From NCBI GenBank assembly GCA_016199545.1, contig JACQGN010000009.1, positions 1 through 46,461 on the forward strand: a DNA stretch of 46,461 nucleotides, read 5' to 3'. Below, one piece after another: positions 4,368-21,895 of the stretch. The position numbers and the translations under genes are program-made. How positions within the stretch are numbered: the first letter of the stretch is position 1; every line of letters begins with the position of its first letter. The stretch comes from Betaproteobacteria bacterium. Lineage in GTDB: Bacteria > Pseudomonadota > Gammaproteobacteria > Burkholderiales > SG8-41. The notes beneath the pieces were generated by a model. The model searched no databases. It was given only the letters and a program-made list of their open reading frames with translations, and was not told the origin of the DNA.

Positions 4368-5210
4368 CTAGCTCTTCTTCGGCGACCAGCCATAGGCCTT
4401 GGCGCAGGCACCGCCCATCAGCATCGCCCGTTCACTGTCGGTGAGGCGGTTGGTCTGGCGGAAGGGCTCGACGGCCTGCTCGAAGTTGACGACCGCGAAG
4501 GCGCGGGTCCAGTCGGTGCCCCACAGGCAGCGCTCGAAACCCCAGGCGTCGAACACGCGGGAGAGTGGGTCCCAGATGTCCGGGAAGGGATACGGCTCCT
4601 TGGACAGCGTGCAGGCGCCGCTCACCTTGATCACCGCGTTCTTGCGCTTCGCGAGCTCCAGCACCTTCGGCAGCTCGGCCCAGGGCTCACGCGGGGCGGG
4701 CGGCGTGCGCGGCTGCATGAGACCCAGATGGTCGATGATGAAGCGCGTGTCGGGGTGGCGGTCGACGAGCGCCGTGCCCGCGTCGAGGTTGCCCCAGCAC
4801 AGCATGTTGACCGGAAAGTCGTGCCGCACGGCTGCGCGCAGTACCCGGTCGAGGCCCTGCTCGCTCGGGCTGCGTCCCGGATCCTTCGTCACGATGATGC
4901 GGATGCCGACGGTGCCCGGCGTCTTCTTCCACTCCGCGATGACGTCGTCCACGGCCGGATCGTCCGCGTCGACCGGCTTGACGATGGCGAACCGGCCGGG
5001 ATGGGCCCGTTGCACTTCCACCGCATAGCTGGCGTCGTACCGGTACATGGAAAACGCGGAGATGAAGATCGCGCCGTCGATACCGAGCTTGTCCATCGCC
5101 GCCGCCATCTCGTCGCCGGTGGCATGAGGGGGCCAGTTCGGCACATTGTGCCAGGGCCGTTTTGGCGTGTTCGCCTCGTAGCAGTGCACCTGCGAATCGA
5201 TGATAGGCAT
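4368..5210 (-). CDS. Amidohydrolase family protein (amidohydro_2)
   Basis: IIDSQVH, IIDHLG, IKVSG, RCLWGTDW motifs. Confidence 0.9.
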   Translation of the reverse strand: MPIIDSQVHCYEANTPKRPWHNVPNWPPHATGDEMAAAMDKLGIDGAIFISAFSMYRYDASYAVEVQRAHPGRFAIVKPVDADDPAVDDVIAEWKKTPGTVGIRIIVTKDPGRSPSEQGLDRVLRAAVRHDFPVNMLCWGNLDAGTALVDRHPDTRFIIDHLGLMQPRTPPAPREPWAELPKVLELAKRKNAVIKVSGACTLSKEPYPFPDIWDPLSRVFDAWGFERCLWGTDWTRAFAVVNFEQAVEPFRQTNRLTDSERAMLMGGACAKAYGWSPKKS

Positions 5211-5246: not shown

Positions 5247-5448
5247 CTAGCAGCCTGTCGGACTCAGCGGTCCGCACAGGCTGCTATAAGCAAAACCGAC
5301 TGACAATTCATAAAAACTGAGCCAAAGCGATCGAATTTGAGGAAAAGCGTGGGGGACATCGCATAGTTTTCATCATTTTCTCGCACTTCTCCCGGCACCG
5401 GTTTTGCATAAGGAGTTTGTCGGGGCTAAGTCCGACAAATTCCTAGTG
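5247..5448. repeat. 202-bp divergent intergenic cassette, copy 1 (inverted homolog of 43742-43943)
   Basis: Reverse complement aligns end to end with 43742-43943, including both terminal hairpins and the internal ACGCTTT(T/C)CCTCAA(A/G)TTCGA block. Confidence 0.85.
5394..5407 (+). promoter_or_regulatory. Sigma54 (-24/-12) promoter motif upstream of the YciI-like gene
   Basis: GG-CACCGGTTTT-GC(A): exact GG-N10-GC spacing, close to the TGGCACG-N4-TTGC consensus. Confidence 0.6.
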
Positions 5449-5528: not shown

Positions 5529-6206
5529 ATGGCTAGCGTTGCAAGCGGCTACCTGCCCGGCGACCCGCGGTACGGGCTGAGCGGCGACGAGTTGCGCCGG
5601 TACTACAGCAAGAAGCCGGCGCAATGGGTGATCTTTGGGTGGGACGGGGCCGGCAAGGCCGGCGCGCGCGCGGCCAATATCGCCGCCCAGAAAGACTATG
5701 CGAAAGCGCTCGGTGAGCGCCTGGTCGGCTATGGACACATCGTGTCTGACGGCGCGTCCCTAACGCTGGCGACTACCTGGTTCGTCCAGCTCGACGACCG
5801 GGCCGCCGCCGAAGCATTTGTCGCCGCGGACCCTTTGAACCGTGCGGGCGTCTACGAAAAGACGGATATCCGTCGCTGGTCGAACAGCTACCTGAAGCGC
5901 GCGGCCGACTACGAGCGCAAAGGGATGCAACGATACCTATGCACCGGATCCAAAATTCCCGGCGCAGCGCCTTTCTTTGCCAGGCACCTGCACGCCCATG
6001 AGGCTTACTTCAAGAAGTACGAAGACAGCTTCATATTCCGCGGACCGCTGCGTTCGCCGGACGGAGCCGAGAATGTCGGGACCGCGCTGCTGCTCGAATT
6101 GCCCGACCGCGCGGCAGCCGAGAACTTCTGGAACAACGAGCCGTTCGCAGCGAACGGCGGTTACCAGGACGACTCGCGGATCTATCGCTGGGAATTTGGC
6201 GACTGA
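5529..6206 (+). CDS. Tandem YciI-like domain protein
   Basis: Two repeats ending DRAAAEAFVAADPL..AGVY and DRAAAENFWNNEPF..NGGY; GGAGA RBS. Confidence 0.7.
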   Translation: MASVASGYLPGDPRYGLSGDELRRYYSKKPAQWVIFGWDGAGKAGARAANIAAQKDYAKALGERLVGYGHIVSDGASLTLATTWFVQLDDRAAAEAFVAADPLNRAGVYEKTDIRRWSNSYLKRAADYERKGMQRYLCTGSKIPGAAPFFARHLHAHEAYFKKYEDSFIFRGPLRSPDGAENVGTALLLELPDRAAAENFWNNEPFAANGGYQDDSRIYRWEFGD

Positions 6207-6238
6207 CCGGTCGGGAATCCTTGGACAGGGAGACGGAC

Positions 6239-6610
6239 ATGAGCAACGGACAGACGATCATCGAGCTCGACCAGAAGCGCATGACCGCGATGGCGCAGAA
6301 GGATGTCGCGGCCTTGAAGAACATGCTGTGCAAGGGGCTCGTCTACACCCATTCCTCCGGCCGCCAGGACACCAAGCAGAGCCTGCTCGACGGCATGGAA
6401 TCCGGCACGACCGTCTACACGTCGATGGTGCCCTCCGACGTCAAGGCGCAGGATTTCGGGAACGTCGTCGTGCTGACCGGCGTCGCGGCCATCAGCGTCA
6501 ATTCCCGCGGCAAGCCGAATTCGTTCCGCGTGCGGTTTACCGACGTCTATGAGAACCAGAACGGCACGTGGCGCATGGTGACCTGGCAGTCGACGAAGCT
6601 TCCCGACTAG
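6239..6610 (+). CDS. NTF2-like (DUF4440) protein
   Basis: LVYTHSSGRQDTK, RFTDVY...WRMVTWQST; GGGAG RBS. Confidence 0.85.
   Translation: MSNGQTIIELDQKRMTAMAQKDVAALKNMLCKGLVYTHSSGRQDTKQSLLDGMESGTTVYTSMVPSDVKAQDFGNVVVLTGVAAISVNSRGKPNSFRVRFTDVYENQNGTWRMVTWQSTKLPD
6543..6609 (+). repeat. 67-bp direct repeat, left copy (3' end of the DUF4440 gene)
   Basis: 66/67 identical to 17588-17654. Confidence 0.95.
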
Positions 6611-6724
6611 ACGCCGCCGTCTCGCCAGAGCATAGCAAGCTACCTAAATCGGGGAATATGAGACAGTCGGGCTCAGCCGACAATTGGTGTCAGGGGTTTC
6701 CTGCCAGCAGAATGAAAGACAACG

Positions 6725-6997
6725 TCAGCCCTCGGATGACTGCGCCGGGGATTTGAGCTTGCGCTGGACTTCACCCTCCACGAACTCAACATATGGCTCG
6801 CCAGACAGGAGCGAGCGAATGGCGGCCTGGCACTCCGGATCGTCTATATCGACGATGTACAGAGCGGCGAGCTCCTTGTCCTTTTCGTTCGGGAACAGCG
6901 GGCGCACGGCCGCCGCTCCGGCATGGGTGACTCTTTCGATCACTCTCTGGCGGTGTGTGGCGGTTGTCGCACCTCGGAACTTGAGTTGGAGCTTCAT
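6725..6997 (-). CDS. Small protein resembling a subtilisin propeptide / I9 inhibitor
   Basis: About 90 aa; begins LQLKFR and ends YVEFVEGEVQRKL, paralleling LIVRFK...AVDFVEP in the adjacent S8 prodomain; start may be 7009. Confidence 0.55.
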   Translation of the reverse strand: MKLQLKFRGATTATHRQRVIERVTHAGAAAVRPLFPNEKDKELAALYIVDIDDPECQAAIRSLLSGEPYVEFVEGEVQRKLKSPAQSSEG

Positions 6998-7035
6998 TCT
7001 CCGGACCAACCGGGATTCTCGGGATTCTCCCCCGG

Positions 7036-8379
7036 CTACTTTAGCAGATTTGGCAGGTACAGTAGACCGTAGCCGTACTCTGAAGTTCTAGACTTTCCCT
7101 TCATCCCGAGGAGGCGCTTCGCCCGAGCTCGCAACAGCGAGCGGACCTTGGCTGCTGTAAGCTGCGGCGACTTGCCAAGTAGTCGCGCAACACCGCCCGC
7201 GACGTGAGGAGTCGCCATCGAGGTGCCATCCCAGGCGGCATATTCCACTTCATCCCGGTGCGCGGATTTCTTCATGGGAAGCGTGGACAGGATCGAAACG
7301 CCGGGCGCGACGACATGTATGTGTTTACCGGTATTGGAGAAATCGGCGCGGTCGAGCAAGCTGTCCACTGCTCCGACCGCTATCACGCCGGAGTACGCAC
7401 CGGGGTACTCCACCGGGTTTCCGTCGTTAAATTCGTTGCCCATGGCGGCGACGACGTTTATACCCCTGGAAACCAGCCGGCGAAAGAGCAGCTGCTCGGT
7501 CTGCGACGAACTCGCACCCCCGATGCTGAGATTGAGAACCCGCGCACCCGAATCCTCCACGGCCCGCAGTGATTGAAGGTAACGCTCGCCGTCCACGTAG
7601 AAATCCCCGTCGGTCGGTTTGTCCGGGAAGATTTTCCATACCTTGAGCTTGCAGTTCGCCACTCCGCTGATGCCGACCGCATTGTTCAATATCGCGGCGA
7701 TGATGCCCGCTACGTGAGTGCCGTGGCCCAGGACGTCTTCAGCGCGGAAGCCGCCGTGGTCGTAATCGATCGTGAGCTCCTTGAGATCGGGGTGCGTCGC
7801 GTCGATCCCGGTGTCGAGCACGGCGACGGTGATGTTATGCGCGCTTGGCAGCGCCTGGTCGAACCAGCCGATGGCATGCAACCCCCATTGCGAGCCCTGC
7901 ATGGGGTCGCCGGCCGCCGCCACGATCCATCGCGCCGGCATCGGTTCCACGAAATCGACTGCGTCCGACGCCTCAATGTCTTTTACGAGCTTGGCCGTCA
8001 CCGCCTTTGGATCGACCTCGACCATATTGAACCCGCGCAGTTCCTCCGAGGGCGATGCCGCCACGCTCATCACCAGGGCCGCCTTGTGCGCTCCTCCCTT
8101 GATGCCCGCGAATTTGATCTTCGGATCCACGGCGCCGGAAAAGAGGGGCGTGACTGTTTCGAGCCCGGCCCTGTTCCTGAGGTAGTCGAGCGGACCCGAA
8201 ACCGTTTCGGGCATTTCGTGAACCGCCGTGGTCATGCGCGCCGCCGAGTGAAACATTCTCGGCCCCACCCGGGGAATCGCCTTTTCCTTGAAGCGGACGA
8301 TGAGCTGTCCAGGAATGTGCGTCAGGCGATGCTTTACGCGGAATGTCGGCTGTTGGGTCCTGCGTGTTCTGGCTGGCAT
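7036..8379 (-). CDS. S8 family (subtilisin-like) serine peptidase, no signal peptide
   Basis: Triad motifs VAVLDTG, HGTHVAG, GTSMATPHVAG; oxyanion AAMGN; GAGGG RBS before 8379 (alternative start 8424). Confidence 0.95.
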   Translation of the reverse strand: MPARTRRTQQPTFRVKHRLTHIPGQLIVRFKEKAIPRVGPRMFHSAARMTTAVHEMPETVSGPLDYLRNRAGLETVTPLFSGAVDPKIKFAGIKGGAHKAALVMSVAASPSEELRGFNMVEVDPKAVTAKLVKDIEASDAVDFVEPMPARWIVAAAGDPMQGSQWGLHAIGWFDQALPSAHNITVAVLDTGIDATHPDLKELTIDYDHGGFRAEDVLGHGTHVAGIIAAILNNAVGISGVANCKLKVWKIFPDKPTDGDFYVDGERYLQSLRAVEDSGARVLNLSIGGASSSQTEQLLFRRLVSRGINVVAAMGNEFNDGNPVEYPGAYSGVIAVGAVDSLLDRADFSNTGKHIHVVAPGVSILSTLPMKKSAHRDEVEYAAWDGTSMATPHVAGGVARLLGKSPQLTAAKVRSLLRARAKRLLGMKGKSRTSEYGYGLLYLPNLLK

Positions 8380-8413
8380 GATTTTTCTCCCTCTTTGAAT
8401 TATTCCGTTGCCT

Positions 8414-8881
8414 TCATTTGCCACCGTCGACTATCGCGATATCCAGGGAATCCAGTTGGGCGAACGCCCAGCTGTCCTCCTTCGATTGATCCCTCAGGGC
8501 AATCAAAGAGCCCGCTATCGCGACTTTCCCACCGGCCTTGATCGGCACACCCAGCCTGGCATCCAGGGGTCCGTGCTGGTCCGACGACGAAACCATGACG
8601 CGGCGCCCCCGCGCCATCAGGAGAATGAGCGCCCATCCGGACGGCGAGGACGATTCCAGGGCGCCACGAAGATCGATCGTAAGCAGCGATCGCTTCTTGA
8701 TGCCGTTCACGCGGAATTCGAGACCGAAGGACCGCGACTCGACCTTGCCCGCGGCATCGGCTTTGTCGTTCGTCACCATCGCCTTGTCGAACAGGATGCT
8801 CAGCTCAGCGCTGTCGGGAGAAAGCGTGCTGATGAGCTTCTCCTTGCCACGGGTCAGCTTCGGCTTGGTAAGGGTGGGCAT
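8414..8881 (-). CDS. Hypothetical protein, 155 aa, probably beta-rich
   Basis: Co-oriented ORF with AGAGG RBS, 11 nt downstream of the preceding gene; no recognised motif. Confidence 0.65.
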   Translation of the reverse strand: MPTLTKPKLTRGKEKLISTLSPDSAELSILFDKAMVTNDKADAAGKVESRSFGLEFRVNGIKKRSLLTIDLRGALESSSPSGWALILLMARGRRVMVSSSDQHGPLDARLGVPIKAGGKVAIAGSLIALRDQSKEDSWAFAQLDSLDIAIVDGGK

Positions 8882-8892
8882 GCGTGTTTCCT

Positions 8893-11800
8893 CTACCTGG
8901 GTCCGCCGGTCGCAGCCTGCCCAACGAGAGTGAGCGAGGTGTCCAGCTGCCGCAGGGTGTCGATCCTGCGCTTGGCATTGCGCACGATGAGCGGATTTAC
9001 TGTATCGACGACCGACTTCGCTCCGCGCGTCCGGTTTTCAACCGCATTTTCGTGGCTGGATCGGGCTAGATTGGCGGCGGTCTCGAGACCAGGAATGTTC
9101 TTCTCCAGATTCTTTCTTTCATCGCTATCCAGGGGAAGCGCTTGCGCCTTGCGGCGCTGCTCGGCAAGCGCACCGTTCTTCTGGGCCAGATCAGTCGAAT
9201 ACTTCTCAACGAGGGGGTTGTCCCCGCGAATCAGCGACTCCAGCCTGTCCCTCAGCCTGCGCATGGATTCGAGCGCCCGGATCATCACGCCCGCCTGCTC
9301 CGCCGCGGTCGCGTCTTCCTTGGCAAGAATGTCCGTGAGCGCGTCGTTCGAGGACTTGATCTCGGCGATGCCGGACGCGTCCTCGGTCACATGCCTCGAC
9401 TTCAGTCCGTTCAAAACATCGTCCCTGGACGCGCCGCTCAGACCGCTTTCCCATGCGCTTCGGATGTCCTCGCCAAGGCGTCCGATTTCTTTCCGCAGGT
9501 CTTCCGCCTCGCTCCTTGTCCGCTTTGCGTGATCGGCGCGATAACCTTCGACCAGCCTCCCCAGTGCATCGGTCCCGGCTGTGCCCGGCTGGGCATTTAC
9601 CTTGTCGAGCTCCCCGCGTATCCCCGCCTTGCTCTCCTCGGGCGTGTCGCGCGAATCCAACTGACGCTGGAGCTGTGCCCGGCGCAGCAGGTTGAGGTCG
9701 AGCCCTTTGCCGATGCCAAACAGCGCCAGCCCCTGCGCGGATCTGAAGATGTCGCTCGGGTCTGCCGAGTAGGCCTTGACGTACCAGTTTCCGACGTCGT
9801 CCTTGGCGAGCACATAGTTGATGTTTCCGCCGCCCGCCAGGTTGACGGTGTTGATGTTCTGCCAGTGCTGCTTGTCGATCTCGCCGAGCGTTTCCAGGTA
9901 CCCCTTTTCGAACTGCGTGAGCGTCGATGCGCCGAGAGAGCGGTTGGTATTGCGGGCAATCATGTTGACCCAGTCCACGTCGGGTTTCGCCTGCAGCGAG
10001 GTCGCCGCGTAGACGCTCCTGAGATAAGCGCTAGCAGGACGCAGGTAAGCAAGATCGGCGCGCTGCTCGAGCACGCTCTCGATTGCCTTCTCCAGGCCAC
10101 GCGCGCGCCTCGTCTCGTTGGACGCAAGGGCGTGTGTTCGCTGATTGCGCAGCATGGCGAGCAGGTCGTCCACCACGTCCTTCTGCGTGGGGTGGGCGTC
10201 GCGCGATTGGACCATCACTGGGGCCCGCACCGGCGTCGTCTCCTTGACCAGCTTGAGCGCGATGTCGAAGCCGCGCCTTCTCTGCACATCGCCGTCAGCC
10301 GTCGAACTCTCGATCTTCTTGCGCTCAGCCTGCAGCGCGTCGGCGAGCAATGCGAGAAGGCCGGCCTGCCTCGCGACACCGGCATCGTTGGCCTTCTTCA
10401 GCACGCTGCCGCGCAAGGCGTCCAGCTCTTCTCGCGCCTTGCTGTAGTCCGCGTGTCGGCCCGCGGCCTGCCCCCCCCGCTTCAGCCTGGCCACCTCACG
10501 GCCGAGCTCGGCTTCCTGCCGCATCAGCGTTTTCACGTTGGCGCGCTCCGACGCAAGGTCGAACAGGAGTTTCTCATTCAGGTTCCTGAAAAATGTGCTC
10601 GCGTCATCGCCCGGCAGCGTGGCGAGCGCATCGCCGTTCGTCTTGAAGAACTTGCTCGTCTTGTCGAGGTTCATCCCCCACGCGGAGCGTTTGCCCGCAT
10701 CGGTGATCGCCTCGAGTTGATAAGCGTCGTCGACGGCCTTCTTTATCGCCGCGATGACATCCGCGCCCTTCTTGGTTTTGTCCTTTGCGAGCGCCTTCAC
10801 CTGCCCATCGATCGAATCGATGAGCTTGACGCCCCTGGGATCGGGCTTGGCACGGGGCTTCGCCGAAGGCGGGAAGACGACCGATATCGCCGCCGCCAGC
10901 GACTCGGCCGACTCCTCGGCGCCTTCACGCTCCCCCTTCTTACCCTGGAGCTTTTCCTCCTCGATCGCCAGGGGCGTCTTTCCTCCCTGGGGCACGGGTT
11001 TCGCGGGAACTACGTCGCGGCTTATGCGCTCGATTTCCGAGTGCAGGTTGCGGAGCAGATTGTCGAGCGCCTGGGCAGGCGTAAGATCGAAGGCGCCGCG
11101 AACCGCCTCGGCCTCCACCCGCCCGCGATCTCTCAGACGCTGCTGGTGCTCGTCGCGCCGGCGCGTGTCATCAGCATGAATGAGGATGGTGTTCGCCACG
11201 GCCTGCACGACTGCGGCCTCGCGCGCGACCTCCGCCGCCCCGCGCTGGTCCTTCTGATCCGGCGGGAGAAGCGCACGGTTGTTGACCGCTACCAGCACGC
11301 GCTCCGCCCAGATGATGAGCGTCTCCTCCAGCTTCTTTCTTGCACTAATGACACGCGGGTTCCGTAGGTCGTTGCCGTAATGCAAGAGCGTTTCCTGGAA
11401 CTTGGTGGTAAGCGAGTCAATCCCCTGAATCTGCCTTGCACGCTCGAAACCGGCGACGGTCCCTGCCGCTATCAGCGACAGGTTGGAAGCCAGCCTGGAG
11501 AGTTGCTGGCTGAAGTTGCGGCCTAGGGTCGGACCGCGGGAAAATCCGAATTGGCGGGCTATCGCAGGAACAACCTCAAGATTATCCTTGCCTGAAAGCG
11601 CCGTGCACCCCGTGAGGTCCCCGGGTGTGGCGACAATGAACGCCCGGTCGCTCTCCTTGAGCAGCTTGACCATTTCCTTCGGAAATCGCGTTGCCGCCTC
11701 CCTGATAGCGCGGCCCGCGCTGTCGTAGGGATCAAGCGAGTCTGCGTTCTCGGACGAATCCGCTGTCCTCGGCTCCAGTTCCCATACCAGACGACCCGTC

Positions 11801-12894
11801 GAGTCCCTCAGCACGGAACGCTCCAGCACGCTACCGAGCCCGCCTGTGAGCGGTGGAGCGCCCTTCCTCGTCAGATAGCAGGCTATTGCCCGGGGTTGCG
11901 AGGTCGCCGCCAGGAAGCGCGCCGCGAGTTGGAGCTGGTCGGAACGATCGGCGTCGCCGAGATGGTCCACGATCTCGAGCATTGCCTTCCAGAGAGATCG
12001 CATCGCGCGCCGCATCTCGAGGAACGCCTCCGAGATTTCCTTCACGCGGGAGACATAAGATTGATCGATCGTCCCGAAGAGGACAGAAGAATAGCCGGCA
12101 AGAACTTCGCTTTTCGACATCTCCGTGTAGATCTCGTTCGCGCCAGCGTTCTTCGAAGCGCAGGCGATATTGTCACGCCCGTCGACGTGCTTTCTTCGCT
12201 GCGCAGCAGGCAATTCCGAAAGCGACTGTTCCATCAGACGACAAGCGCAATGCAGCTCTTCCGCAAGCTTGCGTTTGTTCGGCTCGACATTGTGCAGCGC
12301 CGCGACCGACGCTTTCTTCTGTCGGTCGGCCTCCAGCGAGCATGCCGATGGGACTTGCGTGCTGTCCTCACTCATGAGAAACCGGGCGTGAATGTAGCCG
12401 AACAGCCGCCGGTGCTCATCGATCCCGACGGGATTGCTGGTCATCCGCGGATATGCCTTCAGCAGCCTTTCGGCGAGCGGCCTGTCCTTGCTCTCGGAGA
12501 AGCCAAAAACCTCGTTCTGGTGCCACACCACCTGGAAAGACCGATTTGCACTTTCCATCTCGCTGCCGAGCACAGAATCGGCCGTATCATGGTAAAAGCT
12601 GAGCGCGCCGTTGACGAAACGCGCCGTCTCGTTCGTGAACTTGTAGGCGGGCGCCCAATCGTCGCGGAACGGTCCGAGGCTTTCTCCGAATTTTTCGTTG
12701 CCTTTCCCTTCGAGGCGATTCCTCAACGATGCGAGCACCGGGCGCGCCGCTACGGCGAGCGCAGCATACTGGCGCACCTGTATGTCCTCATGGTTGGCGA
12801 GCGGGCCCTTGTAGACATCGACGTCGATGCGCAGGGCGGCGCAACCGGCGAAGGTCAGCGCGGCAAAAGTAGCAAGCCCGATCCGCGTATTCAT
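8893..12894 (-). CDS. Very large predicted lipoprotein of unknown function (1333 aa)
   Basis: Type II signal peptide MNTRIGLATFAALTFAG-C; helical and coiled-coil-like stretches; ATGA overlap with the upstream gene. Confidence 0.8.
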   Translation of the reverse strand: MNTRIGLATFAALTFAGCAALRIDVDVYKGPLANHEDIQVRQYAALAVAARPVLASLRNRLEGKGNEKFGESLGPFRDDWAPAYKFTNETARFVNGALSFYHDTADSVLGSEMESANRSFQVVWHQNEVFGFSESKDRPLAERLLKAYPRMTSNPVGIDEHRRLFGYIHARFLMSEDSTQVPSACSLEADRQKKASVAALHNVEPNKRKLAEELHCACRLMEQSLSELPAAQRRKHVDGRDNIACASKNAGANEIYTEMSKSEVLAGYSSVLFGTIDQSYVSRVKEISEAFLEMRRAMRSLWKAMLEIVDHLGDADRSDQLQLAARFLAATSQPRAIACYLTRKGAPPLTGGLGSVLERSVLRDSTGRLVWELEPRTADSSENADSLDPYDSAGRAIREAATRFPKEMVKLLKESDRAFIVATPGDLTGCTALSGKDNLEVVPAIARQFGFSRGPTLGRNFSQQLSRLASNLSLIAAGTVAGFERARQIQGIDSLTTKFQETLLHYGNDLRNPRVISARKKLEETLIIWAERVLVAVNNRALLPPDQKDQRGAAEVAREAAVVQAVANTILIHADDTRRRDEHQQRLRDRGRVEAEAVRGAFDLTPAQALDNLLRNLHSEIERISRDVVPAKPVPQGGKTPLAIEEEKLQGKKGEREGAEESAESLAAAISVVFPPSAKPRAKPDPRGVKLIDSIDGQVKALAKDKTKKGADVIAAIKKAVDDAYQLEAITDAGKRSAWGMNLDKTSKFFKTNGDALATLPGDDASTFFRNLNEKLLFDLASERANVKTLMRQEAELGREVARLKRGGQAAGRHADYSKAREELDALRGSVLKKANDAGVARQAGLLALLADALQAERKKIESSTADGDVQRRRGFDIALKLVKETTPVRAPVMVQSRDAHPTQKDVVDDLLAMLRNQRTHALASNETRRARGLEKAIESVLEQRADLAYLRPASAYLRSVYAATSLQAKPDVDWVNMIARNTNRSLGASTLTQFEKGYLETLGEIDKQHWQNINTVNLAGGGNINYVLAKDDVGNWYVKAYSADPSDIFRSAQGLALFGIGKGLDLNLLRRAQLQRQLDSRDTPEESKAGIRGELDKVNAQPGTAGTDALGRLVEGYRADHAKRTRSEAEDLRKEIGRLGEDIRSAWESGLSGASRDDVLNGLKSRHVTEDASGIAEIKSSNDALTDILAKEDATAAEQAGVMIRALESMRRLRDRLESLIRGDNPLVEKYSTDLAQKNGALAEQRRKAQALPLDSDERKNLEKNIPGLETAANLARSSHENAVENRTRGAKSVVDTVNPLIVRNAKRRIDTLRQLDTSLTLVGQAATGGPR

Positions 12895-13610
12895 TTGCCC
12901 CCCGCCTCGGTGCGCAGATCCTCCAGTCGGTCGCGCTGCATCCGGAGCTCCGCGAGATCGTTGAAGAGCGCTCGCTGCAGGTCGAAGCCTCCCCTGCCCT
13001 GCGTCGCCGAAGCCACCACTCCCAGCGCCTCGTCGATGGCTGAAAAAAACGCCTGCGGATTCGCTCCCATGACGACCACCAGCCGATGGTCCTTGGGGGC
13101 CTCCCGGAACCCCTCCGGCCCGAACATCACCAGCCGGCGGCCGGTCTTCAGCGCCTTCGTCTCTTCATCGGCCCGCTTGATCTCGAATCCGCCGCCGTTG
13201 CCCGCGTGCGCGATCGTGGACAGGGAATCGACGAGATCAGCACGCACCCAGCCCGAGGCGAACTTCGTGAAATTGAGCATGCTGGACTGGCCGCGCACGC
13301 GCACCCGGTACATCGTCGGCGGCAACTGCTCCTGCGGGTCGAACACGCCAAGGTAGTACACCTGCTCGATGTCGGTCGACGGAATCTGGCTTGCGATGGC
13401 GGTGCCGACGACCAGGGCGCCGACGGCCGCCTTCTCCCCCGAAGAGAGGTTGGCGCACCCGCTCAGCACGAGGCCCGCTCCCACCGCGCTGGCCGTGAGA
13501 AGGCTGCACCAGGAACGCCCGACAGCGGCGCTCCATGAATCTGCACCGACGTCACGTACTTCGCTCACGTGCGATTTCGACAAGTCATTGCGCAAGATTC
13601 CGGTTACCAT
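12891..13610 (-). CDS. Predicted lipoprotein of unknown function
   Basis: Lipobox LVLSG-C after a hydrophobic stretch, followed by a glycine-zipper-like segment; start uncertain (13640, 13610 or later). Confidence 0.7.
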   Translation of the reverse strand: MVTGILRNDLSKSHVSEVRDVGADSWSAAVGRSWCSLLTASAVGAGLVLSGCANLSSGEKAAVGALVVGTAIASQIPSTDIEQVYYLGVFDPQEQLPPTMYRVRVRGQSSMLNFTKFASGWVRADLVDSLSTIAHAGNGGGFEIKRADEETKALKTGRRLVMFGPEGFREAPKDHRLVVVMGANPQAFFSAIDEALGVVASATQGRGGFDLQRALFNDLAELRMQRDRLEDLRTEAGGK

Positions 13611-13679
13611 CCCTCTCCCTTTCGTCTGTATCGATACCATCGGCTGTTTCGATCTGCTTTTTGGTTGCCGGGTCGGCTG

Positions 13680-15179
13680 CTAAAGCTGGAACGAGTATTC
13701 GTAGAACAGCGGCGTGACCGTGAGCCGCGTCGTGAACGCCTTGCGCTGCGCCTCGGTAAGCGACGCCAGGCTTTCCTTTTTCGGCGCGTCCTGGTCCGAA
13801 AACACCAGGCGCCCGCCGGTCTTTTCCCTGAGCCGCTTCACTAGCGGCTCGAACGGCATCTCGTCCCAGCGGTTCTTCTTCGCCTGCTCCTTCGAAACCG
13901 GCACGAACGCGATCAGATCGTCGCTCGTCATCTGCTCCAGGCCGAGCGTGCGCAGGGTCGCGTTGTGGCTGCCGTGGTGGCCGACCTTGTAGAACACCAC
14001 GCGTTGGAGCAGGTCGGGTCCCGTCACGGTCCGCGTCTCGTTGCCATCCTTGACGGTCCATTTCGTGTCCTGCCAGGAAAGCCAGTTGCCCACCTGGGCG
14101 TCGGCGGCGAACAGGAGCACCTGCCCGCTCTTCACCAGCTCGAACGCGAGCACGAGGCAGGTGTTGTTGGTGTGGCTGTCGAGATTGAGCGCGAGCGTTT
14201 CGGCGGCAGCGGTCCAGTCGAGTTCGATCTTGCGCCAGCTCTCCTCGGGCTCGTCCCAGGTGTCGGCGATGAGCCTCGTCAGCGCCGCGGGCACGGGCTT
14301 CGCCCCCGTCTTCCCCGGAAACAGCGAGAGGTTCTCTTCGAACGGGCAATCCGGGCCGCCTGCTTCGCCCGGCGCCTGGAGACGCTCGAATGCCACCGCC
14401 AGGTTGTCGTCGATCGCCGCGTCCAGGGCGAACTCGTAGACTTCCTTCCCCTTCTTGGTGGGGGAGCTGCGCTTGATGCGGGCTTCGTCCTCGGGCGGCC
14501 CCAGCACGTACACCCGGACGCCGTCCACGCCGGGAAGGGTGAGGGCCGCTTTGGTGGGATAGCGGTAGCTCACCTTCACGCCGCGGCGCTGGCCCAGGTA
14601 CTCGAAGGCGCTCCGGGTCTTGCCGATCGCCTCGCCGGCCGCTGCCAGGCCCTGCAGGCTCGCGGTCGATTCGACGCCGAAGAATTGCAGCAGCGTTTCG
14701 ACCCGGGCCGCGCGACCGGCCGCAAGAGGAGCTGCGTTGCCGCGGAGCGCCATCGCCGCCGCATGCAGGGCCTTCACCTTCGCCGCGCGCTCCTTGCGCA
14801 GCTTCTTCCCGAGCTCGTTCTCGGGATCCTCGGTCCAGGCATACCAGACCTCGCCTACGTCGATGTTGTCGAAGGCGTCCTGGGCCTGCTGCGTCGAGAA
14901 GCCGGAGGCATGGTCCCAGTGCTCGTGAGTCATGACGGCGATGTCGATGCGGCTGCCGCAGCCCTCGGCGATGCTGGCGACCACTTTCTGCATCGTCGGC
15001 TTGGGGTCCTTGGCGACGCCGATCAGGCCGCAGTCGATCAACACGGTGAACGAGCTGTTGCCGCCTTCCTTCGGGAATCGCAACAGGAAGCAGTCGCCGA
15101 GGCCGTGGCGGTACATCCGCACGAGCACCTGCCCGCCAGGGGTCTTTTTCCTCGATCTTGGCTTCGGAGCTTGCGCCAT
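13680..15179 (-). CDS. MBL-fold metallo-hydrolase, ComEC/Rec2-like clade
   Basis: GLGDCFLL, LIDCG, THEHWDH (HxHxDH), NNTCLVL, LLFAADAQ, KVGHHGSHN; start at MAQAPK. Confidence 0.85.
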   Translation of the reverse strand: MAQAPKPRSRKKTPGGQVLVRMYRHGLGDCFLLRFPKEGGNSSFTVLIDCGLIGVAKDPKPTMQKVVASIAEGCGSRIDIAVMTHEHWDHASGFSTQQAQDAFDNIDVGEVWYAWTEDPENELGKKLRKERAAKVKALHAAAMALRGNAAPLAAGRAARVETLLQFFGVESTASLQGLAAAGEAIGKTRSAFEYLGQRRGVKVSYRYPTKAALTLPGVDGVRVYVLGPPEDEARIKRSSPTKKGKEVYEFALDAAIDDNLAVAFERLQAPGEAGGPDCPFEENLSLFPGKTGAKPVPAALTRLIADTWDEPEESWRKIELDWTAAAETLALNLDSHTNNTCLVLAFELVKSGQVLLFAADAQVGNWLSWQDTKWTVKDGNETRTVTGPDLLQRVVFYKVGHHGSHNATLRTLGLEQMTSDDLIAFVPVSKEQAKKNRWDEMPFEPLVKRLREKTGGRLVFSDQDAPKKESLASLTEAQRKAFTTRLTVTPLFYEYSFQL

Positions 15180-15195
15180 GAGTGTCTCCGGCAGG

Positions 15196-17148
15196 TCAGG
15201 CTTCGCTGTGAAGGAGCGAAAGCGGCTCGTCGTCGAGCCTCGTCCCGTCTCCGCCGGTGCCGAAATAGGTGCCCCGGAGCGACAGGCGCTCCTCGCCCTT
15301 GCGCTTCCGGTAGCCGCGGATCTCGGCGAGCCGCTGCTCGTCGTCGATGCGGCGCGTGATGGCATAGCGCAGGCTCGGCTTTTCACCCTCCAGGTCGAAG
15401 ATGAGCGTCGCGCCGCCGCGGAACTCGAATCTGCCCAGGGCCCGATTCTCCGGATCAATGAAGACGCGGCGTACCTGCGTGAGCACCATGATGAGCTGCT
15501 TCATGATCGTGCCCGCGGGGCTCACGCGCAGGGCGGGCCGCAGCGCGTGCACCTCGAAATAGGGAATGCCGTTCGACTTCACAGCGAGACCCTCCAGCCC
15601 GCTCTTGCTCCAGAGATTCAGTCCTGTCACCCGATTGAATTCGGGGCGATGGGGGGCATCGCTGAGGTCGGACATGGATACTTCGAGATACTCGTGTATC
15701 GCGCCCCTCGCGTCGCGCAACCTGTGGAACAGCACCCGCCGATCCCGGACGTACAGCGTCTCCGTAATCTGCGGCCGCAGCTTCGCAGCCACTTCCGTCA
15801 GCGCACCCCAGCCCTCGAAATCCTCCATCCGCGCAAAGGGCAGGCGCAGTTGCTCCTCCGAGAGCGTGCGCAGCCCCTTCGGGAGGATTCCCCAGCGCCG
15901 GAACGATTCGATCAGCGCCACGCGATAGCCGTAGCGATCGTTGGGCACCATGTCGAAGTCGGCGGTGACGAGGGCGCGCAGATAGTCGCCGAAGGTCATG
16001 TCCACCGGTGGGCAGTAGTCCAGCGCGCGGATGCACATGTTGAGGAAGGTCTTCGCAGTGGCGTTCGCCTGCTCGGTGAGCCGGTTGACCAGGTCCGGAT
16101 GGATCGAGCCTGCGGGAAGCACGCCGGTTCCGGCCGTCGCAAGGCGTATCAGGTCCTCGACGCGGGCCTTGTTGACCGCGAGGAATGCGCCGAACACGGC
16201 CGCCACCAAGATGGCGCCGCGGGCATGCGGCTCGAACTCGTTCCCAAGGCGGGCGGGATCCGGCTCGATGGGGTGCCACTTGCCGTCGGGCCCGCGCTCA
16301 CCGATGGCACTGCGTAGCGCCCCGTAGCGCCCGGTCGCTTCACCGAACTGCTGCGCCAGCTCGCCCAACAGGGACTGACTCGCGAGGTCGCCGCGGGTCT
16401 GCGCGATCTGATGGCGGAGGACCTCGGGAAACATGAAATGCTCGAAGAGCGCGACGAGATCGGCGAAGGCCTCGTGGAAGGCCAGCGAGTCTTCGTGATT
16501 GTCCTCGATGAAGCGCCGGTGCATGCCGTCGAGGAGCGCGTGCGTCGTCTCGTGCGCCACGATATCGTGCGACAGGCAGGAGAACACCATGCCGGATGGG
16601 CCGGGGAAATATCCGAACAGCAGGGCCCGCTTGTTCGGGCTGTAGTAGGCGTTGGCGGCCCGCAGGGCATGCGGATAGATCCGCAGGCGCTGAACGTACA
16701 CGTCGCGCTGTCCGGGCGGTTGCGTTTCGTCGTAGAGCGCCGCCCAGAAGATCTGCCGCCCCAAGGCATGCTCAAAGTTGGCGATCGTGTTCATGGTGGC
16801 CGCATACACCATCTGCTGGTGGAACTGCGGGTTGCCTTCGGACGGCGCGAGGCCGTCCTGGGCGACGATCTCGAGCTTGTTCAGATCGACGGGCTCGTAC
16901 CAGCAGCCGCTCGCCGGGTCGTAGTCGAGGACCTCGACGTACTCGCCCACGGGACCGGGATCGAGCTTTCGCTCCCAGGGCGTCTCGAACACCGCCTGGT
17001 TCATCGAGGCCGTGTCCAGCCGCAGCGCGAGGCTCGGATCGAAGGCGTAACCGCGCAAGCGCCGAAAGGGCGGCGGTGGCGCCGTGGCGGACGCGGGATC
17101 GTCGAGTTTACGGTCCAGGTAGAACTGATTGGAATCCGGCGAGAACAT
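15196..17148 (-). CDS. Thermolysin-like (gluzincin, M4/M36-related) metallopeptidase, no signal peptide
   Basis: NAYYSP, DIVAHETTH (HExxH), AFHEAFAD (third zinc ligand Glu), EPHARG. Confidence 0.8.
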   Translation of the reverse strand: MFSPDSNQFYLDRKLDDPASATAPPPPFRRLRGYAFDPSLALRLDTASMNQAVFETPWERKLDPGPVGEYVEVLDYDPASGCWYEPVDLNKLEIVAQDGLAPSEGNPQFHQQMVYAATMNTIANFEHALGRQIFWAALYDETQPPGQRDVYVQRLRIYPHALRAANAYYSPNKRALLFGYFPGPSGMVFSCLSHDIVAHETTHALLDGMHRRFIEDNHEDSLAFHEAFADLVALFEHFMFPEVLRHQIAQTRGDLASQSLLGELAQQFGEATGRYGALRSAIGERGPDGKWHPIEPDPARLGNEFEPHARGAILVAAVFGAFLAVNKARVEDLIRLATAGTGVLPAGSIHPDLVNRLTEQANATAKTFLNMCIRALDYCPPVDMTFGDYLRALVTADFDMVPNDRYGYRVALIESFRRWGILPKGLRTLSEEQLRLPFARMEDFEGWGALTEVAAKLRPQITETLYVRDRRVLFHRLRDARGAIHEYLEVSMSDLSDAPHRPEFNRVTGLNLWSKSGLEGLAVKSNGIPYFEVHALRPALRVSPAGTIMKQLIMVLTQVRRVFIDPENRALGRFEFRGGATLIFDLEGEKPSLRYAITRRIDDEQRLAEIRGYRKRKGEERLSLRGTYFGTGGDGTRLDDEPLSLLHSEA

Positions 17149-17457
17149 GGTTCATTCGCTTTCTTCTGTCGGCTCGACGACCGGCCCCCCAACAGCGTAA
17201 AGGCACGGACACGCCGCAATCCATTGGCGTTTTGGCCTAGTACGGAAGTCGTACGGATTACGGCCTGCGCGCATGCGTAGCGCAGGCTCCCTTCGCTCAG
17301 GCAGTGCAGGTAGAAACCGTAATCCTCCCCGGCAAAGAAGCGGGGCGCGCCGTCATTGCCGCGTTGAAGCGTAACTTAGCGAGGAAATAGGTCACAGTCG
17401 GGCGTAGCCGACAAACGATGTCAGGGAATTCCTGACGCAGACGACGCCCCGAATAAC

Positions 17458-17567
17458 CTAGCCCTTCGTCTGCGACCAGCCGTAGGCCTTAGCGGAGGCG
17501 CCGCCCATGAGTATCGCCCGCTCGCTCTCGGTGAGGCGCTTGATCTGGCGGAAAGGCTTGACCGCCT
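17458..17567 (-). pseudogene. 3' fragment of an amidohydrolase paralog
   Basis: Aligns to 4368-4477 with about 17 mismatches in about 110 nt; encodes AVKPFRQIKRLTESERAILMGGASAKAYGWSQTKG*. Confidence 0.85.
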
Positions 17568-17587
17568 CTTGCGTCGTTGACGACGCA

Positions 17588-17654
17588 ACGTCTATGAGTA
17601 CCAGAACGGCACGTGGCGCATGGTGACCTGGCAGTCGACGAAGCTTCCCGACTA
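17588..17654 (+). repeat. 67-bp direct repeat, right copy (DUF4440 3' fragment)
   Basis: 66/67 identical to 6543-6609. Confidence 0.95.
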
Positions 17655-17743
17655 AAAGGTCATTCCCGGACGCTCCAGCGTCAGGCTCTGCGGTTCTCCT
17701 TGAGCGGAGTATGTCGTTCATGAACAACATCGTGCGGGCGCGG

Positions 17744-18712
17744 CTAATCGAGCTTCACGCCGAACTGGCGGAATAGCTTGCCTATCTTCTCGTAATCTGT
17801 CCTCAGGCGCTGGGCCAACTGTTCCGGCGTCCTGTGCACGGGGTCGTACGTCAGGTCGCTCAGCCTCGAGGCGATCGCGGGATCGCGCAACGCGTTCCCG
17901 AGCTCGGTGTTCAACCGATCGAGGATTGCCTTGGGGATTCCCACCGGTGCAAGAACAATGACCCAGGTCGTGGCTTCGTACCCCGGGAAGGTTTCCGCGA
18001 CCGCCGGCACATCCGGGAGCTTCTTCACCCGCTCCAACGAGGTTACCCCCAGCGGACGCACGCGATTCGACTTGATATGCTCGATAATATCGCCGATCCC
18101 CGCGGTCATGGCGTGGATTTCCCCGGAGACCAGGCCCACTACAGTGGGTCCACCGCCTTTGAACGGCACCTGGGTAACCTGGATGCCCGTCGTGGATTCC
18201 AAGATCACCGTGTTCAGGTGGATGAAGCTTCCGTAGCCGGCATGGCCGAAGAGGACTTCTTTCGGGCGTTTCTTCGCCAGCGCGATGAACTCCTTCACCG
18301 ACCGTGCCGGCACCGAGGGGTGCACGGTCAATACGGTCACCAGATTCCCGAGAGGGGTTATCCCGACGAAATCGCCCAGCGCGTCGTACGACAGCTTCTT
18401 GTACAGGTGCGGGTTGGAAGTGTGGGAGGCGACGGTTTGTATCAGCAGGGTATAGCCGTCGGGCCGGCTTTGCGCCACGACGGCCGAGCCGACCGTGCCT
18501 CCCGCGCCCGAGCGGTTTTCGATGATGAACTGCTGGCCCATCTGCTCGGAGAGCTTCGGGAAAACGATGCGTGCCATGATGTCGTTCGCCCCTCCCGGGG
18601 GAAACGGGATGATCACGCGCACGGGCTTGGCGGGATAAGCCTGCGACCAGGCCGCGCCCCCTGCGCACAGCATGCCGGCGATGAATGCTGCAAGAACACG
18701 AATTGCTCTCAT
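17744..18712 (-). CDS. Bug/TctC family tripartite tricarboxylate transporter substrate-binding protein
   Basis: Signal peptide, YPAKPVRVIIPFPPGG, ENRSGAGG, PDGYTLL, VPFKGGG. Confidence 0.9.
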   Translation of the reverse strand: MRAIRVLAAFIAGMLCAGGAAWSQAYPAKPVRVIIPFPPGGANDIMARIVFPKLSEQMGQQFIIENRSGAGGTVGSAVVAQSRPDGYTLLIQTVASHTSNPHLYKKLSYDALGDFVGITPLGNLVTVLTVHPSVPARSVKEFIALAKKRPKEVLFGHAGYGSFIHLNTVILESTTGIQVTQVPFKGGGPTVVGLVSGEIHAMTAGIGDIIEHIKSNRVRPLGVTSLERVKKLPDVPAVAETFPGYEATTWVIVLAPVGIPKAILDRLNTELGNALRDPAIASRLSDLTYDPVHRTPEQLAQRLRTDYEKIGKLFRQFGVKLD

Positions 18713-18838
18713 GCCATGCGCCCTCCTCTTGGCTGTTCGTATCGTGGACATTATAGCCACCTGGGTCCTGCAGATGATTTGACGCCCGCCGCGTTGCGGG
18801 AGATACCGTAAAAGCGTATCGGCCCGTGGACGGATCTC

Positions 18839-19792
18839 GTGATCCGTTATTACGAGTCGGGCGCCGATGTCCCCAAGGTGCCGGCCTCCAGTTGGAAGCC
18901 CGACAAGGCCGTCGAGTTCGTCGTGCAGGCTGCAGCCGGCGGCGGCAGCGACATCTTCGGCCGCACCATAGCCAAGATCATGTCCGACGAGAAGATCGTC
19001 ACCGTGCCGATCAACGTCGTCAACAAGCCGGGCGGCAGCGGCGCGGTCGCATACTCGTACCTGAGCCGGACGAAAGACGATCCGCACGTCATCGCGACCG
19101 CGACCGGTGGCTACATCACCACGCCGGTGCAGGGGAAGTCACCGGTCAGCTACAAGGATTTCACCAACCTGGCGGTGCTGTGCGTCGAGGACTATGTCGG
19201 CGTGGTACGCGCCGATTCGCCCTAGAAGTCGCTGAAGGACCTGATCGCGGCGGCGAAGCAGAAGCCGAATGGCATCCGGTTCGGTGGCAGCAACCCCGGA
19301 TCTTCCGACAACATCATCGAAACCCGGCTGGAGAAGGCGGCGAAAGTCCAATTCAATTACATTCCATTTCAGAGCGGAAGCGAGGTCAATGCGGCGCTTC
19401 TCGGGGGCACCGTCGACGTCGCCAGCCCGAATCCCAGCGAGGCAGCGCAACTGGTGAAGGCAGGCCGGCTGCGGCCGCTCGCCATGTTTTCTCCGGAGCG
19501 GCTCGGCCAGTGGAAGGACGTCCCGACAGCAAAAGAGCAGGGGTTCGATGTCACGCTCTCGCAGTTCCGCGGCGTGGTGGCTGCGGGCGGGCTGGGCAAG
19601 GAGCAGTCGCTGTTCTGGCAGAACGCGATGGTGAAGATGTTCCAGTCGCCCGGCTTCAAGAAGTACCTGCAGGAAAACGGTCTGCGCCCGCTGGTCAAGG
19701 TCGGAGGCGACGCTGACAAGTACCTCGCGGAGCAGACTGCCTTCTACACGGAAATTCTCTCCGAACTCGGCATGGTGAAGAAGAAGAAATAG
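18839..19792 (+). pseudogene. tctC: tctC pseudogene (no signal peptide, in-frame TAG at 19223-19225)
   Basis: WKPDKAVEFVV..GGGSD..NKPGGSG; frame continues through DSP*KSL into ORF 19454-19792; lies directly upstream of tctB and tctA. Confidence 0.8.
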
Positions 19793-19825
19793 GCGTTACC
19801 GCACTGTGGTTCGGAGGGGACCGTC

Positions 19826-20296
19826 GTGACTCGCGCGAACTTCGTCGGCGGCTTGCTGCTGTCGGCGTTCTTCGGTGCTACGCTGTGGGAGGCTTGGTCT
19901 TTCCAGTACGGCACCGAGTTCGCGCCCGGGCCGGGGTTCGCACCCGTCTGGCTGAGCGCGATCGGCCTGTGCGTGTCGCTGCTGATCGCTGCCCATGGGC
20001 TGTGGGCCATGCGGGGTGGCGAAGGCTCCGACAAGAGAGCAGCGCCCGCGCTTGAGAAGTGGGGCCTGGGGCGCGTGGCGCTGTCGCTCCTCGGCCTGGC
20101 CGCGATGGTTCTCCTCACGGAGCCGCTCGGGCTGGTCGCCTCGATCCTCCTCTTCCTGCTGTACCTCACCCTCGTCGTGCAGCGGCACAGCGTCGCCGTC
20201 GGCATCGGCGCCAGCGTGGGGACGGTCGTTTTCGTCTATGTGGTGTTCGTTTATTTCCTCGAAGTTCCGATTCCGAAAGGCCCCCTGGGATTCTGA
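19826..20296 (+). CDS. tctB: Tripartite tricarboxylate transporter small membrane subunit
   Basis: Four TM segments, PGPGFAP, C-terminal LEVPIPKG. Confidence 0.85.
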   Translation: MTRANFVGGLLLSAFFGATLWEAWSFQYGTEFAPGPGFAPVWLSAIGLCVSLLIAAHGLWAMRGGEGSDKRAAPALEKWGLGRVALSLLGLAAMVLLTEPLGLVASILLFLLYLTLVVQRHSVAVGIGASVGTVVFVYVVFVYFLEVPIPKGPLGF

Positions 20297-20302
20297 ACCC
20301 TC

Positions 20303-21808: not shown

Positions 21809-21895
21809 ACCGTTGCCGCGCCGCGTTAGCGCCCGCTTCGATTGCGCCGATCGCGATAGCGTTACTTCTTGTGCCTGATCCACCGCCCAGGCGCA

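Follow-up and report, generated by a model that had tools for sequence, protein, structure and literature searches.

Do seven closely spaced genes on one strand form one system, or do several independent elements lie side by side? The question is raised by a stretch of 46,461 nucleotides of the genome of a Betaproteobacteria bacterium (assembly GCA_016199545.1, contig JACQGN010000009.1, positions 1 to 46,461), called the window in the following. An initial annotation had noted seven co-oriented genes with short gaps or overlaps, and had proposed that they form an unnamed system with two proteases, a hydrolase with the fold of a metallo-beta-lactamase (MBL) as effector, and lipoproteins as envelope sensors. 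The layout is as it was described: seven open reading frames (ORFs), here called g1 to g7, follow each other on the minus strand with gaps of 16, 39, -4, 11, -11, and 26 nt. The comparison with other genomes, in turn, shows that g1 and g2, which encode a predicted zinc metallopeptidase and a predicted MBL-fold hydrolase, are a widespread, self-contained two-gene module found across many phyla. With a probability of about 0.55 we regard this pair as a metalloprotease-licensed MBL pro-nuclease immune module that lies in a mosaic island.

The metallopeptidase and hydrolase pair

For the analysis of gene neighborhoods the best 80 g1 loci from species-representative genomes were searched with all seven window proteins. 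They belong to Acidobacteriota, Bacteroidota, Gemmatimonadota, Chloroflexota, Planctomycetota, Armatimonadota, Myxococcota, Burkholderiales, and others. The g2 gene is located immediately downstream of g1 in 78 of the 80 loci, and the contigs of the other two end just after g1. In all 78 cases both genes are on the same strand, and the two matches are separated by 66 nt in the median. The identities of the g1 and g2 relatives to the window proteins correlate with a Spearman coefficient of 0.75 (n = 69), a figure that is inflated by shared descent. None of the genes g3, g4, g5, and g7 was found in any of the 80 loci, and the same search yielded one unrelated S8 match, on the opposite strand and 3.7 kb off.

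The g1 gene (15196-17148, minus strand) encodes a protein of 650 amino acids (aa) that is predicted to be a zinc metallopeptidase with a thermolysin fold. Its zinc motifs (16459-16554, minus strand) are HETTH at residues 199-203 and HEAFAD at residues 225-230. Both the HExxH motif and the downstream Glu (ExxxD), the third zinc ligand of gluzincins, are thus present, and H199, E200, H203, E226, and D230 are invariant in 44 sequences, in agreement with the gluzincin label that the protein had been given. The AlphaFold model has a mean predicted local distance difference test value (pLDDT) of 81.5 and a predicted template modeling (TM) score of 0.87. Its top Foldseek matches are ProA, thermolysin, vibriolysin, pseudolysin, aureolysin, and M36 fungalysins, with a probability of 1.00 and target TM scores of 0.45-0.56, and the fold of the model is thermolysin-like. 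It also contains an extra C-terminal part of about 170 residues (approximately 448-620), which is predicted to be composed of helices and a beta-sheet. The model shows the last residues, 623-650 (15199-15282), as disordered, although E641, L646, and H647 are almost invariant across the 44 sequences, and this tail could be an autoinhibitory or docking peptide.

The family is large and has escaped annotation. No match to g1 was found in Pfam, NCBIfam, or PADLOC, including no known sensor domain, and neither a match to the Peptidase M4 models PF01447/PF02868 nor the layout of a secreted pre-pro-enzyme was found. The N-terminus, judged by eye, is not hydrophobic and has no evident signal peptide, as the initial annotation had noted. 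There is no significant sequence match in the PDB (the best, an unrelated DUF6827 protein, has an E value of 0.16), and a profile of 44 relatives did not yield a PDB match either. All 8000 scored candidates (clusters at 90% identity) are g1 relatives with 45-84% identity, and among the pattern-matched stretches listed from species-representative genomes, 589 of 599 code for a relative of g1, which makes at least 589 such loci. Wherever these relatives are named they are called "hypothetical"; in addition, one relative with tandem g1 domains weakly matches Pfam Peptidase_M4 and one plasmid-encoded relative is annotated as "peptidase M4". A phage collection contained only two partial matches to g1.

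The g2 gene (13680-15179, minus strand; 499 aa, counted from the first ATG with which the conserved N-terminus is obtained) is predicted to encode a ComEC-like MBL-fold hydrolase. Its motifs are GDCF (28-31), HEHWDH (85-90), D360, and HHGSHN (401-406), of which HEHWDH, D360, and H401/H402 are invariant in 52 sequences. The last motif starts with HHGS, an ending of the metal motifs that we take to be typical of ComEC. On the sequence level the matches are weak, both to the Pfam MBL models and to the PDB, in which only generic MBL proteins were retrieved. The structural model (pLDDT 86.8) matches best the beta-lactamase-like nuclease domain of ComEC (PDB 9ic4) in Foldseek, with an E value of 8.1e-10 and a target TM score of 0.73. 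The two halves of the predicted MBL fold are separated by an insertion of about 225 residues (approximately 115-340; 14160-14837, minus strand), which contains low-confidence loops at 240-300. The g2 family also matches PADLOC models of defense-associated MBLs, namely LmuA (MBL type) with 52 of 52 sequences (best E value 8.5e-21), RTasMBL with 46 of 52, and Avs1a with 34 of 52.

A contact between the two proteins is predicted. Residues 28-530 of g1 were modeled together with residues 14-499 of g2, in three runs and alongside three controls, with alignments made for this analysis. The g1-g2 complex reached a score of 0.75, compared to 0.00 for the best of the controls. The score mark used here is reached by 58 of 80 solved complexes and by 2 of 110 mismatched pairs, counts that are only rough in this case, as the alignments were our own. 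At least 84% of the contacts are shared between the runs, and the pLDDT of the partner is at least 82. The predicted interface joins residues 63-88, 105-107, and 156-189 of g1 with residues 248-328 of g2. Its g1 side is formed by the beta-rich lobe together with the strands that immediately precede the HExxH helix, and its g2 side lies within the insertion. The insertion of g2 is thus predicted to dock next to the catalytic helix of g1, on the N-terminal part that is rich in beta structure.

Proposed protease licensing and its main rival

Proteases that switch on MBL nucleases have precedents. According to Evans et al. (bioRxiv 10.1101/2025.11.14.688446) protease-associated MBLs form three clades, the partners of which are trypsin-like, caspase-like, and S8 proteases, and the MBL of Avs2 is cut at two sites, which turns it into a Zn-dependent nuclease for double-stranded DNA. 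A further study (Science 2025; PMC12799240) presents defense MBLs as pro-nucleases that resemble DNA-uptake (ComEC-type) nucleases and describes caspase-nuclease loci ("Canu"); the nuclease gene is mostly located upstream, and the protease is fused to a recognizable sensor. A trypsin-MBL module is the subject of another preprint (10.1101/2025.09.03.673762).

By analogy, g2 would be a latent nuclease (a zymogen), g1 would cut it within or around the insertion and thereby release its DNase activity, and the freed g2 would degrade DNA, leading to abortive infection or growth arrest upon phage attack or another insult. The extra C-terminal part and the conserved C-terminal tail of g1 are candidate switches of the protease. 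The earlier idea that a protease gates an MBL effector fits g1-g2, in view of their strict adjacency, the matches of g2 to defense MBLs, the complex model that scores above its controls, and the published precedents, but it does not extend to all seven genes.

The neighbors and variants of the pair are of interest in this respect. In 15 of 76 loci the gene directly upstream of g1 encodes a patatin-like phospholipase, and in 2 of the 76 a Tle1-like/DUF2235 hydrolase is encoded there; where present, these proteins may be further protease-licensed effectors. A clustering of the neighbors did not reveal a conserved third gene besides patatin. The g1 relative carries an S8 domain as an N-terminal fusion in 7 of the 80 loci and likewise on several plasmids, and such domains may add an upstream protease. 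A g1 match is present in 62 plasmid records, mostly rhizobial, of which 35 are conjugative, and four of the 62 were examined in detail. On pCMU01 of Methylorubrum extorquens the gene order is DUF2235, S8-g1 fusion, and MBL, between SIR2 genes; the fusion protein has Peptidase_S8 at residues 6-290, a g1 part with 49% identity, and an intact HETTH motif. On an Agrobacterium pAt plasmid, the genes for patatin, g1, and MBL adjoin genes for a DUF1837 protein and a DEAD-box helicase, and DUF3800 genes and a restriction enzyme gene are nearby. A Rhizobium leguminosarum plasmid (L121, 5956-9050) encodes a g1-like domain with 29% identity in a 593-aa protein annotated as "serine protease"; it is followed by a "metallohydrolase" gene, the pair lies beside genes for a DUF1837 protein and an S1/P1 nuclease, and may represent another architecture of the module. 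On a Rhizobium etli plasmid an S8-g1 fusion gene precedes a gene for a 512-aa hypothetical protein, which is probably an MBL. Three of the four plasmid copies examined are thus situated among defense-type genes.

Relatives of g1 with a length of about 1125-1138 aa had been considered as g1-g2 fusions, and this was rejected, as no MBL part is present. The one that was compared (P0050) consists of tandem g1 domains with the motif HQLTH in the first copy and HETTH in the second. Judged from these motifs, the first copy is likely a pseudo-protease, and the tandem arrangement hints that the stand-alone g1 works as a dimer. Independently of this, 3 of 73 genes that were called downstream neighbors strongly match the PADLOC candidate MBL model PDC-M48B (best E value 1.2e-66); they are second MBL genes or g2 genes displaced by the ORF picking. 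A search for literature on PDC-M48 did not retrieve any.

Alternatively, g1-g2 might be a genuine pair without a role in immunity, for example a protease-matured hydrolase of nucleic acids or phosphoesters that is linked to stress or nutrients, or a toxin-like addiction module of mobile elements. This is the main rival, and we consider it unlikely, although several observations fit it. The conservation of g1 across phyla is high, the immediate chromosomal neighbors are mostly housekeeping genes, no NTPase or other known sensor was found, and copies are common on large rhizobial plasmids, as the 62 records mentioned above show. The distribution of the pair, by contrast, is patchy, as exemplified by the absence of g1 from all 40 related genomes analyzed, including 27 of high quality. 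The matches of the entire g2 family to defense-type MBL models, the recurrence of patatin and DUF2235 effector genes as neighbors, and the three plasmid copies among defense-type genes likewise speak against a non-immune role.

The immune reading has to be weighed against a number of points that do not favor it. The identity of 45-84% of the g1 relatives across phyla is unusually high for a defense gene. The chromosomal neighbors other than patatin and DUF2235 are diverse, and PADLOC yielded scattered defense matches without a clear enrichment in the immediate neighbors (76 and 73 loci). The match of g2 to a defense MBL profile in PADLOC covers only positions 5-115 of 345, and its PADLOC and NCBIfam matches are far below the curated cut-offs, e.g., 24 bits versus a cut-off of 420 for Avs1a of NCBIfam. 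None of the residues H199, E200, and H203 of g1 is among the confident contacts of the complex; therefore, the model shows docking and not a substrate seated in the active site. In comparison to the published MBL modules the gene order is reversed, as g2 is downstream of the protease gene, and g1 is not fused to a STAND, a Hachiman, or any other known sensor. Some functional coupling inside the island is conceivable in view of the close spacing of all seven genes and of the S8-g1 fusions in other genomes. Finally, we infer all three of the decisive activities, i.e., cleavage, nuclease activity, and defense by g1-g2. Taking both sides together, the immune reading of g1-g2 is slightly favored.

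The other five genes and the island

The remaining genes were thought to belong to the same system. g3 (12891-13640, minus strand; 249 aa) encodes a lipoprotein with an uncertain start codon: the lipobox LSGC at residues 59-62 follows a long N-region, and no nearer in-frame start with a standard short signal peptide was found. g4 (8893-12894, minus strand; 1333 aa) encodes a long-form member of an uncharacterized lipoprotein family, with the lipobox FAGC at residues 15-18 after a hydrophobic stretch, followed by VDVYKGPL. Both lipoboxes, which had already been recognized in the initial annotation, were judged by eye, and homologs of both proteins carry lipoboxes at the aligned place. A conserved C-terminal domain of g4 (residues 1005-1070 approximately; 9685-9882, minus strand) has the pattern HWQNIN..GNWYVK..DP; together with the lipobox region it recurs in proteins of 430-640 aa. 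The family profile retrieved 1253 representative clusters, 564 of them with an E value of 1e-30 or better. The lengths among the best 150 clusters range from 340 to 1360 aa, and thus long forms like g4 recur. No relative was found in viral contigs, and neither NCBIfam nor PADLOC contains a match to g3 or g4. The ESM Atlas returned no usable match for g4, which is evidence of neither absence nor novelty.

Genes similar to g4 are present in 5 of 400 genomes of the phylum and on one metagenome contig (38% identity). In all five genomes a gene for a lipoprotein of 229-337 aa is located directly upstream. These lipoproteins share about 21% identity with g3, with 14 invariant columns including the lipobox Cys. 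The other neighbors are NadE, MutY, and similar genes, and no S8 protease, g5, or g7 gene was found near the g4-like genes of the five genomes. The envelope lipoproteins g3 and g4 thus form a conserved pair of their own, which is found elsewhere without proteases or MBL, and its proposed tie to the rest was not borne out; a link to sensing, as postulated for the lipoproteins, was not found.

g6 (7036-8424, minus strand; 462 aa) encodes an S8 subtilase with an N-terminal prodomain-like region, which confirms its original label. The match to Pfam Peptidase_S8 (PF00082) has an E value of 1.9e-53, and the motifs of the catalytic triad are LDTG (203-206), HGTH (234-237), and GTSMA (400-404). The likely start is M16 at position 8379, resulting in 447 aa, as in the gene call of the genome collection. 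The N-terminus has no evident signal peptide or lipobox when judged by eye, in line with the earlier remark that both proteases lack export signals. g6 is a full-length member of a large S8 family of about 447-460 aa, with 47-68% identity over 92-98% of the length, the prodomain region included. The best match in the 400 genomes of the phylum, by comparison, has an identity of about 40% and covers the catalytic domain only. Genes similar to g6 are found in none of 301 Acidobacteriota and in one of 301 Myxococcota genomes; at this single locus no relatives of g3, g4, g5, or g7 are nearby, and viral contigs did not contain a g6 relative.

g5 (8414-8881, minus strand; 155 aa) has a coding-like composition, and one word-index search revealed no relative besides itself among 180 candidates; PADLOC has no match. 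g7 (6725-7009, minus strand; 94 aa) belongs to no family. Its description as propeptide-like holds only in a weak form, as a single comparison with the prodomain of g6 gave an E value of 0.02, and its match to Cas7b in PADLOC is spurious. The evidence obtained ties g5, g6, and g7 neither to each other nor to g1-g2.

Could all seven genes nevertheless act together, with g3-g4 sensing the envelope, g6 (held in check by g7) and g1 forming a cascade, and g2 as the effector? The co-orientation and tight spacing within one island fit this possibility, and terminator-like sites are not in excess in the region (9 versus 8.8 expected; promoter-like sites were not found in the same scan). Furthermore, the S8 domains fused to g1 relatives show that the combination of S8, g1, and MBL recurs, so that the dual-protease proposal has some backing from other genomes. 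This backing does not extend to the subtilase of the window. The fused S8 domain and g6 share only 25% identity, the fused domain has no tblastn match in the window at an E value of 0.01, g6 is closer to ordinary stand-alone S8 proteins than to the fused domain, and none of 10 genomes carrying g1-g2 contains a g6-like gene. The g3-g4-like pairs next to NadE, MutY, and similar genes and the lack of a g5 relative among the 180 candidates also speak against a common function. Because g3, g4, g5, and g7 are absent from all 80 g1 loci, the seven genes are not a unit, and we consider joint action of all of them improbable.

The borders of the cluster reveal how it is embedded. The 67-bp direct repeat that had been noticed on both sides is real: its copies (plus strand, 6543-6609 and 17588-17654) are identical at 66 of 67 bases, and a 40-nt core is present exactly twice in the window, compared to 0 copies expected from 100 shuffles. 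The left copy is the 3' end of a DUF4440/SnoaL-like gene (6221-6610), and the right copy is an orphan 3' fragment of this gene. Exactly at the right repeat an Amidohydro_2 gene breaks off, of which 133 bp of the 3' end are left (17455-17587, minus strand; similar to 4368-4500). The region 17455-17654 thus consists of two gene 3' ends, about 133 nt of an Amidohydro_2 paralog and 67 nt of DUF4440, that are joined head to head. This join, at the island's right edge, looks like a scar left by recombination. The genes outside encode an amidohydrolase, YCII, DUF4440, TctC, and TctA, and no gene for an integrase, transposase, or recombinase was found between the repeat copies. All seven genes have a coding-type G+C content at third codon positions (0.73-0.89; about 0.45 at second positions), which is 0.82-0.89 in g1-g3 versus 0.73-0.78 in g4-g7.

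In two relatives of the same genus (G005 and G001) the YCII gene directly adjoins an MFS gene, and therefore the region 6203-21900 of the window is absent there. DUF4440, the tctCBA genes, and the island between them therefore lie in a variable stretch, and in G001 the tct genes adjoin the amidohydrolase gene instead. A clean empty insertion site was not seen among the relatives, in one of which the DUF4440 gene was matched, at a contig end. We read 6610-17587 as a mosaic island of approximately 11 kb that was acquired horizontally, in a rearrangement-prone spot, and not as one system of seven genes. At least three modules without a relation to each other are found in it, i.e., g1-g2, g3-g4, and g6 with its neighbors g5 and g7.

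Three groundwater-metagenome DNA runs of one study were checked for the continuity of the locus. Error-free contigs of one public run cover 6555-7629, which reaches from the left repeat through g7 into g6, as well as the greater part of g1 and g2; this run may be the source of the bin itself, and thus the support is not independent. The short metagenome contigs that were aligned contained no joint skipping the island, and the joints listed have short sides of 20-29 letters and are probably due to repeats or other organisms. That the cluster is an assembly chimera is highly improbable: the genome is a groundwater metagenome bin of 349 contigs (78.7% complete, 4.75% contamination) and the island is absent from relatives, but the contigs just mentioned, with the stated limit, cross the left border, and the repeat as well as the gene remnants at the borders resemble scars of biological recombination.

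Two further elements of the window lie outside the island. A dispersed repeat of about 200 bp is present on the minus strand at 5247-5446, between the amidohydrolase and YCII genes, and at 43742-43943. It matches many places in the same genome (e.g., on C276, C289, C303, and C342), is found with 70-98% identity in the relatives G002, G004, G008, G011, G013, and G017, and is by far the deepest region under the metagenome contigs. It looks like a miniature inverted-repeat transposable element or a repetitive extragenic palindromic element. The region 25179-27620 contains a gene for a XamI-type restriction endonuclease (PF09572, E value 9.4e-120), followed by a gene for an Eco57I-type methylase. 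Its G+C content is 0.55-0.56, compared to about 0.64 elsewhere, and it is probably a second acquired island. For annotators, the window is a warning that a tidy, operon-like cluster of seven genes can be an accretion of unrelated modules.

Comparison with known systems

PADLOC-DB 2.0 did not detect any complete system; apart from the spurious one of g7, partial matches were obtained for g2 and g6 only. g6 resembles the S8 proteases of defense systems such as IetAS, with E values of 1.9e-29 for the PADLOC model "subtilase" and 3.4e-9 for IetS over the catalytic domain. However, these matches are on the general S8 level, an IetA-like ATPase is missing, and the score for IteS of NCBIfam is 16.5 bits versus a cut-off of 900. 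In dentilisin-type operons two lipoprotein genes are followed by a gene for an S8 protease. The island has the same order, and g6 matches the PrtP model at 1.3e-37, but its score of 129.8 is far below the cut-off of 300 and g6 has neither lipobox nor signal peptide, so that this is a resemblance only.

The individual members of the pair also have well-characterized counterparts. Like the thermolysin-like peptidases (MEROPS M4 and M36 fungalysins), g1 has the HExxH...ExxxD zinc site and, in the model, the two-lobed fold. In contrast to these enzymes, it lacks an evident signal peptide, has the extra C-terminal part of about 170 residues, and is always paired with an MBL. g2 differs from ComEC (PDB 9ic4) in that it is a stand-alone, soluble protein with a large insertion, and not a domain of a membrane DNA-uptake channel.

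The closest likeness is to the protease-licensed MBL modules, i.e., the trypsin-MBL modules of Avs, Hachiman, Lamassu, and DRT systems, Canu, and the S8 clade. In these modules, as in g1-g2, a ComEC-like MBL is co-inherited with an adjacent protease, an insertion is present between the halves of the MBL fold, and the LmuA, RTasMBL, and Avs1a models are matched, by g2 itself over the first ~115 profile positions only. Both also combine with other effector or sensor genes and occur in defense-type neighborhoods on plasmids. The differences are that g1 is predicted to be a zinc metallopeptidase of the thermolysin fold instead of a serine or cysteine protease, that the protease next to the MBL is not of the trypsin-like, caspase, or S8 class and has no S8 domain fused to it in the window, and that the insertion of g2, with its approximately 225 residues, is far larger. 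A metalloprotease partner is not named in the main texts of the three papers (10.1101/2025.11.14.688446, PMC12799240, 10.1101/2025.09.03.673762), and the supplements of the first two may show partners of the g1 type. Combined literature searches retrieved no paper on a metalloprotease-MBL or thermolysin-MBL pair in anti-phage defense, and a wider one, which covered titles and the starts of abstracts, did not either. Perhaps the published S8 clade includes the S8-g1 fusions, their unannotated g1 domain having been overlooked.

This leads to a broader and more tentative proposal, against which we see the odds as somewhat tilted: g1-g2 might represent a widespread fourth class of protease-licensed pro-nuclease modules, in which the zinc metalloprotease is the constant licensing enzyme, a separate NTPase sensor is dispensed with, and the fused S8 or serine-protease domains are upstream add-ons that create a two-protease cascade. 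If so, the "subtilisin-associated MBL clade" of the literature would really be a metalloprotease-MBL clade.

The gating of effectors by proteolysis is emerging as a main principle of immunity in bacteria, and the published MBL modules make use of serine and cysteine proteases. The g1 family is large and is present in many phyla and on conjugative plasmids, yet Pfam, NCBIfam, and PADLOC have no model for it. Should g1 indeed license a nuclease, a new class of proteases would join the proteases that gate immune effectors, a minimal two-gene case would be at hand for asking how such a protease is switched on, and many pairs of "hypothetical proteins" could be re-annotated. The initial annotation had not recognized a named system; this holds for Pfam, NCBIfam, and PADLOC, but the general mechanism, a protease-licensed MBL nuclease, has already been published. 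Compared to its known representatives, what would be new in g1-g2 is the class of the protease.

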